A DNA stretch of 64,000 nt from Alphaproteobacteria bacterium (GTDB lineage: Bacteria; Pseudomonadota; Alphaproteobacteria; Rs-D84). Positions 4,679 to 51,227 of the stretch are shown one piece after another. The stretch lies in contig JAWPOC010000014.1 in assembly GCA_033345235.1 (NCBI GenBank), positions 3,872 through 67,871 on the forward strand, read 5' to 3'. The notes beneath the pieces are model-generated. The model was not told the DNA's origin, did not search any database, and saw nothing but the letters and a program-made list of their open reading frames with translations. Position numbers and translations under genes: made by a program. Position 1 is the stretch's first letter, and each line of letters opens with the position of its first letter.

Positions 4679-4945
4679 ATGGCACATAAGAAAGCTGGTT
4701 CGGCATCAACGAACGGACGTGACTCGGAAGGACGCAGACTGGGTATTAAAAAGTCTGGTGGCAGCCATGTTATCCCAGGCAACATCATCATTCGTCAACG
4801 TGGTACAACTGTACATCCTGGCTTGAATGTTGGTATGGGTAAAGATCATACAATCTTTGCAAAGGTTGTTGGTACTGTCAAATTCAAAAAAGGCAATGGC
4901 GACAGAAGAACTGTTTCCGTCGTCCCAGACACAGAAGCGAAATAA
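4679..4945 (+). CDS. rpmA: 50S ribosomal protein L27
   Basis: [28 protein letters not shown]...[13 protein letters not shown]; canonical L27, immediately after rplU. Confidence 0.97.
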
Positions 4946-4950
4946 TAAAA

Positions 4951-4975
4951 ACCGCCCGTTTGGGCGGTTTTTATT
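4951..4975 (+). terminator. Rho-independent terminator after rpmA
   Basis: ACCGCCC-GTTT-GGGCGGT followed by TTTT. Confidence 0.85.
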
Positions 4976-5038: not shown

Positions 5039-5067
5039 TTGCAAAAGTAATCACATTACATTATAAT
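5039..5067 (+). promoter_or_regulatory. Sigma70-type promoter (TTGCAA, 17-nt spacer, TATAAT)
   Basis: TTGCAA at 5039-5044, exactly 17-nt spacer, TATAAT at 5062-5067. Predicted transcription start near 5075. Confidence 0.6.
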
Positions 5068-5074
5068 CACAATG

Positions 5075-5297
5075 CAATCGGAATCCAAACCATTGCAGGG
5101 GTGTAGCAACCCTTAATTTACAGATACCCGATTACATATCGGGATTTTGGAAGCGTACTCCGACCATCTGGTTGGAGGGCTGGTGGAATATAAAGAATAC
5201 ACCACACTATTTTCTGTAAATTATAGTTGCTAACCTCCAACCACCATATACGCGGTATTGCGTGGTTTCTTTTTAAAAAAGGAACGGTCGGAGAGAA
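5075..5297 (+). promoter_or_regulatory. Long structured 5' leader, copy 1 of a 3-copy family (candidate cis-regulatory RNA)
   Basis: Segment A CTCCGACC (5158-5165), B GGTTGGAGG (5170-5178), C CCTCCAACC (5234-5242), D GGTCGGAG (5286-5293, SD region). A pairs with B or D, and C pairs with B or D. A hairpin plus T-run follows at 5244-5274. Homologous leaders lie at 7658-7907 and 50024-50276. Confidence 0.55.
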
Positions 5298-6407
5298 ATG
5301 AAGCACGTAAATTTAGTATTAACTATGCTATTAATCCCCATATCTGCCAATTGTGCAGAATTGCTGACGTTTGGCCCGCCAATTTGTCCATATGGCCAGT
5401 ACAGATATAATGGTACTTGCACAGACTTTGACATTAATCACACAGATTGCGCAGAATATTTCGAAAACAATAACGGTCATTTAATAACACTGGACGTCAG
5501 TACGTTTCGTTTTACAGAATCTGGTGCACGTGAATGTTATGGCCCGTATTCCACATATACTTATGATAAAACGCGTATCCAACCAGTAAATTCCAAAGGC
5601 ACGTATTTGTATACAGTAACTAAATCTGCACCAATATGCGGCTTTGGTCAGTATCACTTAAACGGTGCGTGCTATAGCTATGATGACGTTAATGCAACAG
5701 GTAAATGTAAATCAGATTATCACTTGATGGGTGCACCCGACAGTTCATTTATGCGTCCCATCGCTGAAGAGCCATATTGTAACGGCGATTATAGTTTGTA
5801 TAAGTATGCCACAGGCACATTCGATGGCATATATCCAATGTATCATGGGACATTGTTGTTTGGGCCTGCGATAGGCAAAGTTGCCGATATGAAGACACAT
5901 GCGTGCAGTGTGAACAGCAATAATTATTATCAAATTGGTATAACCGCCCAAGGCTCATACGCGTATCCAGAACGTGGAATATGCGCCACAGGGTATTCTA
6001 AGTTCGTCGTTAAATATAATTGTTGGCAGATTGATACCGCAGACAGCGCGACATTAAACAACGCACATATCTGTGGCGTATTGTGTGAAAAACCAGAATA
6101 TGTTTACACGAATTCAGGTCGTTGTTCAACGGACGGCTATTGCGAAAACGGTGACAAGAAATTGCGCTTGCATGTTGCGCGCCCAGACGGGGAAAAGTAC
6201 AGCTATCCATTATATGCGTCCAAGACCAGTGATCCGGCCATGCACTTTAAGTTTGTGAACGCATCGGGGAATGAACAGATGTGTTATGTGAATTTAGTAC
6301 CGCCAGAGGCGATAAACCACTTTGTAGGCACAAAACCCAATCCAATCCGCACAATGTTTTATAACCCCGATCTCGGCAAAAACGAAACATTAATAACGAT
6401 AGATTAA
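5298..6407 (+). CDS. Secreted Cys-rich protein (369 aa)
   Basis: Signal peptide MKHVNLVLTMLLIPISANCAE. Repeated module PIC-x-[YF]-GQY-x2-NG-x-C (ICPYGQYRYNGTC and ICGFGQYHLNGAC). Many Cys throughout. No homology recognised. Confidence 0.7.
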   Translation: MKHVNLVLTMLLIPISANCAELLTFGPPICPYGQYRYNGTCTDFDINHTDCAEYFENNNGHLITLDVSTFRFTESGARECYGPYSTYTYDKTRIQPVNSKGTYLYTVTKSAPICGFGQYHLNGACYSYDDVNATGKCKSDYHLMGAPDSSFMRPIAEEPYCNGDYSLYKYATGTFDGIYPMYHGTLLFGPAIGKVADMKTHACSVNSNNYYQIGITAQGSYAYPERGICATGYSKFVVKYNCWQIDTADSATLNNAHICGVLCEKPEYVYTNSGRCSTDGYCENGDKKLRLHVARPDGEKYSYPLYASKTSDPAMHFKFVNASGNEQMCYVNLVPPEAINHFVGTKPNPIRTMFYNPDLGKNETLITID

Positions 6408-7621: not shown

Positions 7622-7650
7622 TTGCGGCTGCCTTTATATTTATGTATAAT
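7622..7650 (+). promoter_or_regulatory. Sigma70-type promoter (TTGCGG, 17-nt spacer, TATAAT)
   Basis: TTGCGG at 7622-7627, 17-nt spacer, TATAAT at 7645-7650. Predicted start near 7658. Confidence 0.55.
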
Positions 7651-7657
7651 TTATATG

Positions 7658-7907
7658 TCGTCAGGAACAGCTGACGATGGGGTGTGACTACCCGTTGCAT
7701 ACGCGTCTGGGAAAGAATCAGTGCGCCGTTTGGCGTATTTTTTGTATCCAGATGAAAAAATACACTCCTGATCCTTAGTGGTCAGGAGGGTTGCGAATAT
7801 ATTGAATAAGCACACAATTCGTATGATTGTAGTCAACCTCCTGACCACTTTGTAGATGCAATGTGGTTTCTTTTTTAACAAAAAGGAAGATTTAGGAGTA
7901 AGACATA
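7658..7907 (+). promoter_or_regulatory. Long structured 5' leader, copy 2 of the 3-copy family
   Basis: A CTCCTGATC (7765-7773), B GGTCAGGAGG (7780-7789), C CCTCCTGACC (7837-7846), D TAGGAG (7893-7898). B:C extends to 13 bp. The loop shares GAATATA..GAATA..CAC with copy 1. A hairpin plus T-run follows at 7845-7876. Confidence 0.55.
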
Positions 7908-8249
7908 ATGTTGAAACAATTTATTACGACGTCATTTGTTTTTACGTTTGGCGTTATAACCACTGTAAATTCTGCCAGTCTGGATAATGATTTTGGCAAT
8001 AAATTACAAACAATATCCACGTTAGAAAACGATATTTTAATATTAGACACAGAAATCGCAAAGTGTGAAAAGTCCAAGAAAGGCTGGGTTGCGGCGACAG
8101 TTATTGGGTCTGCGGGCGTTGTGGCGACTGGGGTTGCTGCCGGCGTCCAAGGCGCAAAAATCAAAGATAAAAAAGCGGCCATAGAACAAGGTAATTCAGA
8201 TGTTAAAACATTAAACACAACATTACAGGGGTATAACAATGACAAATAA
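7908..8249 (+). CDS. Secreted coiled-coil / glycine-zipper protein (113 aa)
   Basis: Signal peptide, then ...ENDILILDTEIAKCEKSKKGWVAATVIGSAGVVATGVAAGVQGAKIKDKK. Same C...K-x-G plus Gly/Ala-zipper module as in 8239..9453 and 50277..51227. Confidence 0.7.
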   Translation: MLKQFITTSFVFTFGVITTVNSASLDNDFGNKLQTISTLENDILILDTEIAKCEKSKKGWVAATVIGSAGVVATGVAAGVQGAKIKDKKAAIEQGNSDVKTLNTTLQGYNNDK

Positions 8250-11800: not shown

Positions 11801-12143
11801 AAGCGGGCTTTCAAGTTGAGACAACAAACAAAAAAGACACTCAACCCCTGAAATTCTGCGGTTTACGGAACAGACGGTATGAATAGGGTTCTGATAAACT
11901 ACGCAAACATTGTGAATAAAAGCAGCTCATCAAAAATTCAAGAAGGGATGTGCAGACAGTTGAATTTGGAATATCCAAACTTTGACTAAGTCAAAAGTGC
12001 ATATCCTAGACAGGTAGTAGGTTTACATATTAAACCTCGTTAAAAACTTGTCTTGCGAATAATTATATATGTAAAGACGAACTGATTATTAAATAGTCAG
12101 CTTTTGTTTATATGCACGGGACTTACTTAACAGGTTTTTTTAG

Positions 12144-13644
<1,501 letters not shown>

Positions 13645-13724
13645 ATAGAGAATACCGATAACACGATATCGGTCAAATCCAAAGCGACTGTCTGAATATC
13701 TCTTTTTGAATGTGTCAAATCGCT

Positions 13725-13801
13725 GGGTCAGTAGTTCAGTTGGTTAGAATGCCGCTCTGATACAGCGGAGGTCGAAGATTCGAGTTCTTCCTGACCCACC
13801 A
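13725..13801 (+). tRNA. tRNA-Ile (anticodon GAU) in the 16S-23S spacer
   Basis: GGGTCAGTAGTTCAGTTGGTTAGAATGCCGCTCTGATACAGCGGAGGTCGAAGATTCGAGTTCTTCCTGACCCACCA. Cloverleaf with anticodon loop CT-GAT-AC. Confidence 0.95.
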
Positions 13802-14079
13802 CTTGTTTGATGAGGTTGGAATCAGCAGTGTAAAACACTTCTGATTCCAGATATTCCAAGAATATCCTCGGAATCTGCTTTTATTTAGCAAACATTGTTA
13901 ATCGGTTTTTATGTCACAAATCAAGAAATTGATTTGTTGAACATCGTAATCTCAAATTCTTTCTGAAAGAGTAATCACGAAAGTGATAATTCAATTTAGA
14001 AAAGCAAGAATCAACTAATGCTTAAAAAACTCATTAAAGTGTTCTTTTTAAGTTTGAAGACTTTCTCTTCAAGCATAAG

Positions 14080-16833
<2,754 letters not shown>

Positions 16834-16927
16834 ATCGTCTTGACTTTTAATCAGTCAGACGGTATGCTTGAAGAGAACGTTTAAGATATGATTCTTAGGA
16901 ATAATTATGATGTTCTTGCTGGATTGA

Positions 16928-17043
16928 TTCTGGTGATTATTGAGCGGGAGCCACCCTCTGTTCCATCCCGAACCAGACAGGGAAACCCCGTATCGCCGAT
17001 GGTACTTTGGTTTAAGCCACGGAAGAGTAGGTCGTCGCCAGAA
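16928..17043 (+). rRNA. rrf: 5S ribosomal RNA
   Basis: TTCTGGTGA...CCCATCCCGAACCAGA...CGCCGATGGTACT...AGAGTAGGTCGTCGCCAGAA with a terminal helix. Ends are approximate. Confidence 0.9.
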
Positions 17044-49987: not shown

Positions 49988-50023
49988 TTTGTTTGTCATA
50001 TCAGATTGTGATAACATTCAAAA

Positions 50024-50276
50024 TGAATTGGTGGAGACACCCGTTCGGGGCTTTCACAGGCCTTGCTCATTCGGTGCGAAACAAGGAAATGTTGCCTGTT
50101 GGATAACGTTCCTGTGGTTTTGCATCGTCATTTGTCCCTGACTGTAATAGGTCGGGGGGCTGTTTGCCATAAAACAGGGTTCGCCCGAAAGCAAATGGAA
50201 TCAATAATGAGCTGATTGTGAACCCCCCGACCGCTGTTGTCTTTGCTGCGGTTTATTTTTTTAGATGGGGGGTATT
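50024..50276 (+). promoter_or_regulatory. Long structured 5' leader, copy 3 of the 3-copy family
   Basis: Extended -10 TGaTAACAT at 50009-50017. A TCCCTGAC (50135-50142), B GGTCGGGGGG (50150-50159), C CCCCCCGACC (50223-50232), D GATGGGGGG (50264-50272, SD). A T-run follows at 50252-50262. Confidence 0.5.
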
Positions 50277-51227
50277 ATGAAACCTTTTAGTAAAACAATG
50301 ATGTTGGGTGCGCTTTTGGTGCCGAATATCGCATTTTCTGCGTCGGATGGATTGACACAGGCGCTGCAAAGCGTACGACAAAACTGTGGCGGGATATCTG
50401 AATTGATGTCCGATTTAAAAACCAAAGCGGGAATTAATACCGCAATAACCGGCGCAGGTACTGTTGCAGGCGGCGTCGCGTTGGGAACAGGTATTGCCAA
50501 AGCGCAAAAAGATTCGAAAATAGATGAAATAGAACAGCAGTTGATGGATATGTTAGAACAGGCGTCTGCCACCGAAAATTTCGAAGCAGAAACTTTGTAT
50601 TTGGACATAGATGCGGTTACAGCTGCAATTGAAAAAGGGCAGGCGGACGAAGCTAAAAGAAAAGAGTTGATTTCAGAACTGAAAACTTTGACCGCAGAAT
50701 CTAAAAAGTTGGGCAATGTGCGTACAGGTACGATGGCGGCGGCAACTGTTACAAATATCGCGGGCGCTGCAATTGCAGGCACAAATAAAGTTGACGAAGA
50801 TTTATCTGCCAGAATTGGCGCGTGTGTCAGTTATGTAAAACGGTTGGCTGATGTTAAAATGCAGGCGCATATCGAAGGCAGTGCGACATCTGCAGAAATC
50901 GCACAGGTGGACAAAATTATTTCTGCGTGTGATAAATGGTCGACGGTTGATTTAAGTCCAATTAACAAACGTGCAACAGGTGCGGCCGTATCCAGCGGTA
51001 TTGGCGCAGGCTTTGGTTTGATTGGAACAATCACCAGTGCCAGTGCGAACAGTGATAAAGTTCGCAGTGGTGATGCCAAACAAGAAAAGAACTTGAATAC
51101 GGTATCGAATGTTATGGCCGGCACAACGGCTGCGGCCAGTTTAACGTCGACTATATTTAACGCGACCCAGATTTCTGCAATTAAACACGCGGCAACTGTT
51201 GCCGACGAATGCCAAGGAGCACTGTAA
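50277..51227 (+). CDS. Secreted protein with about 4 coiled-coil/glycine-zipper modules (316 aa)
   Basis: ATG 50277 gives the signal peptide MKPFSKTMMLGALLVPNIAFSA with a GGGGGG SD; the track start 50265 lies inside the SD. Modules include NCGGISELMSDLKTKAGINTAITGAGTVAGGVALGTGIAKAQKD, GNVRTGTMAAATVTNIAGAAIAGTNK and NKRATGAAVSSGIGAGFGLIGTI. Confidence 0.7.
   Translation: MKPFSKTMMLGALLVPNIAFSASDGLTQALQSVRQNCGGISELMSDLKTKAGINTAITGAGTVAGGVALGTGIAKAQKDSKIDEIEQQLMDMLEQASATENFEAETLYLDIDAVTAAIEKGQADEAKRKELISELKTLTAESKKLGNVRTGTMAAATVTNIAGAAIAGTNKVDEDLSARIGACVSYVKRLADVKMQAHIEGSATSAEIAQVDKIISACDKWSTVDLSPINKRATGAAVSSGIGAGFGLIGTITSASANSDKVRSGDAKQEKNLNTVSNVMAGTTAAASLTSTIFNATQISAIKHAATVADECQGAL

Follow-up and report, generated by a model that had tools for sequence, protein, structure and literature searches.

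A leader RNA with two alternative folds, probably a transcription attenuator, from uncultured Alphaproteobacteria

A structured 5' leader RNA is found three times in a 64,000-nt stretch of an uncultured alphaproteobacterial genome (contig JAWPOC010000014.1; this whole stretch is called the window below), and it belongs to an RNA family that is absent from Rfam 15. Two sets of helices exist in this family; both covary and they overlap, one helix of the second set (B:C) disables an intrinsic terminator, and a co-oriented gene is almost always present downstream. The leader is best explained as a cis-acting transcription attenuator of the riboswitch type, a reading to which we attach a probability of about three in four, and the regulated step, we infer, is termination. 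Much of the evidence comes from a covariance model that recovered 116 copies, scoring between 27 and 153 bits, from 100 sources among the uncultured Alphaproteobacteria of gut and rumen.

Attention was drawn to the leader by a sequence-only reading of the window, which described copy 1 as a switch built from four mutually complementary segments that would mask or free the Shine-Dalgarno (SD) sequence. Its coordinates are all correct: the promoter, A (CTCCGACC) at 5158-5165, B (GGTTGGAGG) at 5170-5178, C (CCTCCAACC) at 5234-5242, D (GGTCGGAG) at 5286-5293, the hairpin and U-run, and the ATG at 5298. The observation is thus confirmed, and the interpretation is partly supported. The competition between A:B and B:C stood up, while the upstream half of the architecture (F:F', E:E', H2, H1 and P1) had been missed. 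The parts of copy 1 (5039-5300, forward strand) are as follows.

5039-5067, +, promoter: -35 box TTGCAA at 5039-5044, 17-nt spacer, -10 box TATAAT at 5062-5067
5073-5097, +, P1, the 5'-terminal hairpin, TGCAAT 5073-5078 with ATTGCA 5092-5097; begins at the predicted transcription start
5098-5113, +, P2 hairpin, GGGG 5098-5101 with CCCT 5110-5113; loop bears F; stem covaries
5104-5110, +, F (TAGCAAC); long-range or pseudoknot helix with F' 5226-5232
5114-5124, +, E (TAATTTACAGA); partner E' 5213-5223
5127-5143, +, P3 hairpin (CCCGAT with ATCGGG); helices 4-5 covary
5158-5165, +, A, the anti-antiterminator strand; partner B 5170-5177
5169-5178, +, B in its full extent (TGGTTGGAGG); pairs with A or with C (5234-5243)
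5182-5203, +, H1 hairpin, stem GGTG with CACC, loop GAATATAAAGAATA (family consensus GAAUAUAUUGAAUAA); stem covaries (helix 7)
5206-5227, +, H2 local hairpin, ACTAT 5206-5210 with ATAGT 5223-5227; loop holds E' (5213-5223); stem covaries independently
5226-5232, +, F' (GTTGCTA); partner F
5234-5243, +, C in its full extent (CCTCCAACCA); antiterminator partner of B, its 3' part AACC(A) being the terminator 5' arm
5239-5274, +, intrinsic terminator, AACCAC 5239-5244 with GTGGTT 5262-5267; U-run TTTCTTTTT 5266-5274
5275-5284, +, A-run complementary to the U-run
5286-5293, +, SD region D
5298-5300, +, ATG start codon of a 369-residue signal-peptide protein

The U-run and the complementary A-run that follows it lie at 5266-5284 here and at 7866-7885 in copy 2, and in both copies a U/A hairpin is possible just before the SD; by a crude text match, such an A-run follows the U-run in 50 of the 116 copies. 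Just ahead of the copy 1 promoter, at 4944-4975, the upstream gene ends in a strong, bidirectional-looking terminator (AAAAACCGCCC and GGGCGGTTTTT forming its arms).

Two folds and a terminator

Leaders of the family are about 190-230 nt long and share a single layout. From 5' to 3' this runs through the promoter, P1, P2 (GRGG, loop, CCYC), a variable E, P3 (absent, short or long), an A-rich linker, A (CUCCAACC), a loop, B (GGUUGGAGGG), H1, H2, F', C (AACCUCCAACC), a hairpin with U-run, the SD and the start codon. Within this layout F, the 7-9 nt of the P2 loop, finds its exact complement in F', just 5' of C, and E is complementary to the loop of H2 (E').

The first set of helices, Fold I, consists of F:F', E:E', P3, A:B, H1 and the terminator. 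In the 116-sequence alignment (A3), 92.3% of cells are paired compared with 73.8% in shuffles, and both-sided changes are seen at 36 of 44 pairs. None of 500 shuffles attains the observed covariation score of 0.481; shuffles give 0.159, and sliding the partners gives 0.04-0.09. The F/F' and E/E' sequences are wholly different between copies, and the longest duplex they form has a median of 7 within a copy and of 3 across mismatched copies, a comparison that depends little on the alignment. F' is an exact 7-mer complement of F in 108 of 134 pattern hits, where a few per cent would be expected by chance; pairing in this helix is 99.4%, and each column shows 3-5 pair types. All 8 modelled pairs of E:E' show both-sided changes, as do 5 of the 8 pairs of A:B, a helix that is 96.5% paired. 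Judged from geometry, P2 and F:F' would form a classical H-type pseudoknot, in which a first loop of 2 nt spans a second stem of 6-7 bp, and E:E' formed together with H2 would be left with no linker for the crossing.

Fold II consists of the local P2, P3, H1, H2 and B:C. Although the same alignment is biased against it, having been fitted to Fold I, Fold II is 90.3% paired and has a covariation score of 0.254 against 0.125, above every control. In the H2 stem, column pair 292/314 is AU in 66 copies, UA in 36, UG in 5 and CG in 3, with 44 double changes. In the P2 stem, column pair 5/20 is GC in 68 copies and GU in 26, with 18 carrying A-U in place of G-C or G-U. A different partner for the 5' side of P2, in which GGGG pairs with the CCUC of C, is predicted by minimum-energy folds; this candidate was set aside, as it shows no both-sided changes and an A at column 6 mismatches, and the local stem fits the variation better. 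B:C reaches at least 9 contiguous Watson-Crick pairs in 95 of 111 copies, and its sequence occurs in several versions (GGUUGGAGG, GGUCAGGAGG, GGCUGGAGG and GUCGGGAGG, with GGUCGGGGGG in copy 3). The covariation of B:C across the three window copies, on which the sequence-only reading had relied, is therefore real and extends through the family.

The two helix sets are alternatives, since H2 takes up bases of E' and the first two of F' in its 3' strand, and since B is unable to pair with A and C together. As first proposed from copy 1, A:B and B:C are real and mutually exclusive, and both carry compensatory changes family-wide. The strict sequence conservation of A, B and C is simply explained by these double duties, because B pairs with both A and C and C also builds the terminator. 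With both states of the switch visible in covariation, the leader is an unusually clear natural case.

This pattern bears on the view that the leader is a static structured 5' untranslated region, which stabilises the mRNA or sets a fixed level of termination and whose alternative helices are by-products of G-rich and C-rich repeats. P1 is typical of stabilising elements, being a 5'-terminal hairpin, and a static element also fits with there being no known effector. But the compensatory changes in H2 and B:C go beyond what Fold I explains, two incompatible folds are kept across more than 100 copies, and high-GC variants described below recreate the competition with different sequences, so that a static role seems very unlikely.

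The terminator would link the two folds to gene expression. Its helix is 95.4% paired across the family and covaries. Among the 96 copies with a located T-run, the free hairpin has a mean energy of -9.8 kcal/mol, blocking the bases that B:C occupies weakens it to -2.7 kcal/mol, and the 10-nt tail after the hairpin has at least 6 T in every one (96/96). On average B:C covers 4.5 nt of the hairpin region. Because the terminator stem starts with the final AACC of C and is crippled by B:C, B:C is the antiterminator and A the anti-antiterminator. The leader thus has the structural features by which intrinsic-terminator attenuators are recognised, namely a G+C-rich hairpin and U-run immediately upstream of a gene, an antiterminator that excludes the hairpin by sharing bases with its 5' arm, and an anti-antiterminator that competes for the antiterminator strand. 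The short hairpin and U-run that the sequence-only reading placed between C and D are indeed present (5239-5274), but their role was understated, for this terminator overlapping C is the main output device.

Mean constrained energies are -55.7 kcal/mol for Fold I with the terminator and -44.5 kcal/mol for Fold II, compared with an unconstrained minimum of -58.4 kcal/mol. At the point just short of synthesis of the terminator 3' arm, 93 of 109 copies have their lower energy in Fold I. That Fold I with its terminator lies near the energy minimum suggests that termination is the default and that read-through needs help; the default state is probably off.

Taken together, these features can be assembled into a mechanism. 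Each copy would start transcription from its own sigma-70 promoter, producing an RNA that begins with P1. In Fold I, F in the P2 loop would pair with F' and E with E', closing a junction around P3, A:B and H1. C would stay free, its AACC end would join the downstream stem and U-run in the terminator, and transcription would halt before the gene. In Fold II, E' and part of F' would fold as H2 and B would exchange A for C; the terminator 5' arm would be sequestered, and RNA polymerase would read into the gene, encountering the SD within about 25-35 nt. The balance between the two would be shifted by an effector, which could be a small ligand or an RNA-binding protein and would recognise the invariant elements, namely the H1 loop, B/C and bases of the junction.

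The original proposal was a different one, a purely translational switch in which A:B plus C:D masks the ribosome-binding site, B:C frees it, and termination plays no role. C does contain CCUCC, which is able to pair with any SD; C:D is 7/8 in copy 1, and GGGGGG stands opposite CCCCCC in copy 3. These pairings are not features of the family, as C:D amounts to 3-6 Watson-Crick pairs in 82 of 86 copies, the generic complementarity of any SD. Moreover, a canonical terminator overlapping C is conserved and covaries, and the proposal leaves out F:F', E:E' and H2, which hold most of the covariation. Three high-GC variants do seem to mask the SD, though by way of F'/E' and not C. All told, a purely translational switch is improbable. 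In transcripts that have read through, C may reinforce the off state by covering the SD, an effect that is not singled out by the data.

The three variants (55-58% GC) lie at L011:2553-2733 (-), L047:65-243 (+) and L056:13135-13306 (+), the L-numbers here and below denoting the source loci or contigs of homologues. They have no U-run terminator. All share a small hairpin with a conserved loop (UUCCGUUUU), and before the ATG they carry a repeat of their own F and E sequences in which the SD is embedded; one of them precedes a Bro-N protein. In L011 the mimic is CUUAGAG plus CAGUAAGAGG, to be compared with F CUUAGAAC and E CAGUAAG; in L056, where the sequences are different, it is CCUGAUAGC plus ACUUGGAG, compared with F CCUGAUAAC and E ACUUGG. 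In these variants, three sequences of which two are near-identical, the F'/E' strand can pair either with the sensor or with the ribosome-binding site, which supports F'/E' as the switching strand and argues for a modular platform. Expression platforms in the family would thus comprise a terminator in more than 100 copies and, putatively, SD masking via F/E mimics in these three.

The family and its members in the window

Homologues were gathered by pattern searches and by the covariance model. A scan of a genome collection with a pattern made of C and the terminator led to 6 contigs of uncultured Alphaproteobacteria or 'Rickettsiales' metagenome-assembled genomes (MAGs), to one contig from a bin labelled Bacteroides fragilis with sequence like that of those MAGs, and to one clear chance match. 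The leaders and several proteins of the B. fragilis-labelled contig (L008, CAVGNU010000007.1) closely resemble those of the alphaproteobacterial MAGs L006 and L007, and its label probably reflects contamination of the bin. A second pattern, consisting of B and the loop that follows, gave at least 120 loci in metagenomes from human gut, rumen and similar samples. It also gave two contigs in IMG/VR (L129 and L130), where two other patterns found none. Both contigs are classed as viral and bear the leader, L129 scoring 133.9 bits with the model. The leader was not found in 50,697 phage records.

The model (R1) was seeded with 76 sequences that are less than 80% identical and were picked for an exact F:F' match, and it uses the Fold I structure; copies 1 and 2 of the window are in the seed and copy 3 is not. 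With filters off, it finds all three window copies, of which copy 2 scores highest (114.5 bits), followed by copy 1 (101.6 bits) and copy 3 (36.5 bits, E about 1e-7). The next-best score there, 15.5 bits, belongs to the reverse strand of copy 1, and nothing further appears. Recovery of copy 3 by a model that had not been trained on it bears out the recurrence claimed from the window, and the search for further homologues that had been proposed at that point is what yielded the 116 copies, including some that the patterns had missed and tandem arrays. The density is high, with three copies in the 64 kb of the window and up to five within 7 kb elsewhere.

No Rfam family accounts for the leader. 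Searches of Rfam 15 returned only rRNA and tRNA for the whole window at gathering thresholds and, with E values as high as 10 allowed, only chance-level matches for copy 1, none better than 17.6 bits. Sixteen loci holding about 25 copies gave only tRNAs, and L119 gave nothing relevant at E up to 10. This agrees with the failure to assign the leader to a class by eye. The conserved sequences were not found in the literature searched. No match was seen in 200 of the 408 supplementary files of Fremin and Bhatt (2021; PMC8040213), a large survey of human-microbiome RNAs that may still list the family as an unnamed candidate. The rRNA operon of the window (12143-17043) has tRNA-Ile alone between 16S and 23S, and the 23S aligns over 2751 nt to a model of 2925 positions, with several helices shortened.

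The claim of a conserved, structured leader with a promoter of its own holds throughout the family. Dinucleotide-shuffle z-scores of the window leaders are -4.9 (5075-5297), -6.2 (7658-7907) and -5.3 (50024-50276). In 87 of 113 copies a -10 box (TATAAT or TAAAAT) has its last base 24-25 nt ahead of the first position of the model, and 65 of the 113 carry an extended TG. The segment between the -10 box and P2 has a mean folding z of -3.7 across the 113 copies, and corresponds to the 5'-terminal hairpin P1. The fixed positions of the -10 box and P1 are consistent with the predicted start near 5075 in copy 1. The P1 pentaloop is GNGUU (GAGUU, GUGUU or GGGUU) in most metagenome copies, such as L119, L055 and L006, though not in the three window copies, and may make a tertiary or protein contact.

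The loop of H1 is at least 90% conserved. Since the metagenome pattern required that loop, this figure is partly built in, but copies found with the other pattern or with the model alone also carry the loop or a close variant. It contains two GAAUA repeats and is a good candidate for a protein, ligand or tertiary-contact site.

The second and third copies of the window, both on the forward strand, are laid out as follows.

7622-7910, +, copy 2, long-P3 subtype, 114.5 bits with the model
7622-7650, +, copy 2 promoter
7658-7677, +, copy 2 P1
7679-7694, +, copy 2 P2
7685-7691, +, copy 2 F, pairing with F' 7829-7835
7698-7703, +, copy 2 E, pairing with E' 7820-7825
about 7704-7754, +, copy 2 P3, with an inner hairpin and U-run at 7720-7745
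7765-7774, +, copy 2 A
7780-7789, +, copy 2 B
7792-7812, +, copy 2 H1
7814-7830, +, copy 2 H2
7837-7846, +, copy 2 C
7844-7876, +, copy 2 terminator
7908, +, copy 2 ATG
49990-50279, +, copy 3, divergent member outside the seed, 36.5 bits (E about 1e-7)
50012-50017, +, copy 3 -10 box TAACAT
50047-50062, +, copy 3 P2 with F
50053-50058, +, copy 3 F, pairing with F' 50217-50222
50065-50071, +, copy 3 E, pairing with E' 50206-50212
50136-50142, +, copy 3 A
50150-50159, +, copy 3 B
50223-50232, +, copy 3 C
50230-50262, +, copy 3 terminator
50267-50272, +, copy 3 SD, GGGGGG
50277, +, copy 3 ATG

The hairpin and U-run inside the P3 of copy 2 (7720-7745) are GC-rich and terminator-like, and are kept with differing stem sequences in other long-P3 copies. 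They could be a site of pausing or early termination, or a mere branch of P3.

BLAST between the three window copies gives only matches of about 26 nt or less, so the likeness lies in architecture and not in sequence, and the copies are no recent repeat. This tells against a mobile element of the miniature inverted-repeat transposable element or repetitive extragenic palindromic (REP) kind that spreads by transposition with an incidental promoter. Such an element would fit the many copies per genome, which are often clustered and in some cases lie beside accessory genes. Against it, copies within a genome are too diverged for BLAST and yet stay paired by compensatory substitution, neither terminal inverted repeats nor target duplications are present, and the orientation and distance to the downstream gene are fixed. 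We give this explanation almost no weight.

Downstream genes and the question of cis action

A co-oriented open reading frame with an SD lies downstream of at least 92 of the 116 copies, and its start codon is most often 9-13 nt past the end of the model, or about 25-35 nt after the terminator stem. This fixed distance and orientation argue for action in cis, and would not be expected of free-standing small RNA genes. As had been noted at the outset, each of the three window leaders precedes a reading frame with a signal-peptide-like N-terminus; Pfam searches with these window proteins gave no match.

The 92 downstream proteins include 52 that are signal-peptide-like and about 30 that are small and without a signal peptide. 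Pfam recognises Flg_new in 11, an XRE-type helix-turn-helix domain in about 11, and GmrSD, Bro-N and YadA_anchor in one each, most of the proteins having no match. The class of gene varies with the form of P3. Leaders without P3 precede small, non-secreted proteins (18/18), long-P3 leaders with GGUCAGGAGG, the type of copy 2, precede signal-peptide-like proteins (19/20), and short-P3 leaders like copy 1 precede mixed classes.

In four loci (L006, L007, L008 and L001) a leader and an XRE helix-turn-helix gene are located between rpsK (S11) and rpoA, within the conserved ribosomal-protein/rpoA cluster, and in L006 that region also holds a second leader with a GmrSD nuclease gene. GC-rich palindromic repeats (e.g. 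CCCCCTCCGGCTGCGCCGCACTCCCCC, or CCCCTCT with AGAGGGG) lie between terminator and gene in L012, L054, L083, L104 and L109; the contigs are of the rumen type and the repeats are REP-like.

Some leaders form tandem arrays of 2-4 units without intervening reading frames. Promoter and terminator are present in every unit, F and E are distinct from unit to unit, and only the last unit adjoins a gene. Four units are found in L023:175-1015 (+), three in L006:5025-6036 (-) and pairs elsewhere; further loci with arrays are L008, L013, L021, L026, L057, L078 and L082.

These arrays bring to mind independently transcribed small RNAs that act in trans, or sponges for a protein or ligand, with the H1 loop as seed or binding site and the upstream position secondary. 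A promoter and terminator in every copy would suit such RNAs, as would a terminated form that is the energy minimum and a single-stranded loop whose sequence is strongly conserved. However, the 92 or more co-oriented, SD-bearing reading frames at a narrow and fixed distance would be left unexplained, and the conserved, covarying antiterminator B:C would serve no purpose. There is also no convincing target complementary to the H1 loop in the window, where the best matches to its reverse complement have 2-3 mismatches and the apparent excess (18 matches where 7 would be expected) counts the loops themselves and scores near-palindromes twice. Small RNAs acting in this way are an unlikely primary explanation, but are compatible with attenuation, as terminated leaders could also act in trans.

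Several considerations weigh against transcription attenuation in cis. The downstream genes are heterogeneous, ranging from Flg_new surface proteins and Cys-rich secreted proteins to XRE regulators, a GmrSD nuclease, Bro-N and a YadA-like anchor, unlike those of most metabolite riboswitches, and tandem units without an intervening gene also suit independently transcribed small RNAs. The counts for Fold I are somewhat inflated, as the alignment was fitted to that fold, and the choice of seed required an exact F:F' match. The energy figures leave out pseudoknots and co-transcriptional kinetics. Finally, the high-GC variants would be on in Fold I, the reverse of the terminator variants, a point that rests on three sequences, two of them near-identical.

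Known systems and significance

The leader has much in common with terminator/antiterminator riboswitches such as the purine, cyclic di-GMP-I and T-box leaders of Firmicutes. It has a conserved, covarying sensor closed by a long-range helix, a strand common to sensor and antiterminator, an antiterminator that overlaps the terminator 5' arm just upstream of the gene, an output module that seems to vary by lineage (terminator or SD masking), and occasional tandem copies. It differs from them in its lack of an Rfam match, in controlling heterogeneous genes and not one pathway, in its strong covariation in both folds, in the separate promoter of each tandem unit, and in its hosts, which are low-GC uncultured Alphaproteobacteria.

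There are also resemblances to protein-dependent antitermination leaders, such as those of BglG/SacY and its ribonucleic antiterminator (RAT), ANTAR, HutP and TRAP. As in these, the antiterminator is conserved in sequence as well as in pairing among the many operons of a genome, termination is probably the default, and a conserved loop, here with two GAAUA repeats, is a possible protein site. Unlike them, the element is much larger, at about 170 nt, and has a pseudoknot-like long-range closure. RAT and ANTAR sites are without a covarying anti-antiterminator and sensor domain, both of which are present in this leader.

The arrangement of A:B, B:C and C/terminator as anti-antiterminator, antiterminator and terminator recalls the 1:2, 2:3 and 3:4 pairings of trp and pyrBI attenuators, which, in contrast to this leader, have a conserved leader peptide. 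In some copies an SD-like GGAGGG followed by GUG or UUG is found, but by eye, with no statistics, neither the frames (owing to single-base indels) nor the stops are conserved, and the short frames after B differ in frame and length between copies. The choice between folds can therefore not hang on a translating ribosome in the usual way. RNA thermometers (ROSE, fourU) share an anti-SD-like CCUCC upstream of the SD; in this leader, unlike in those, pairing with the SD is not specifically conserved, and the element is far larger and ends in a terminator.

Beyond attenuation itself, a more speculative possibility, which we hold only tentatively, is that the leaders constitute a new riboswitch class. 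Its ligand would be a small signalling molecule, for instance a nucleotide second messenger, bound by the junction together with the invariant H1 loop. With dozens of copies in each genome, the class would control the secreted and surface proteome of uncultured gut Alphaproteobacteria, along with XRE regulators and some defence genes, using terminator platforms in low-GC lineages and SD masking in high-GC lineages.

The hosts, Alphaproteobacteria of the human gut and the rumen, are uncultured, and next to nothing has been learned about their gene regulation. Since the family offers more than 100 diverse sequences, two well-supported alternative folds and a terminator as a clear read-out, the leader is directly testable without a cultured host, and it would add an orphan class to the known riboswitch-like attenuators. 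The presence of one leader before genes for secreted and surface proteins, XRE regulators and defence functions points to a common signal for the host-facing and accessory functions of these bacteria.

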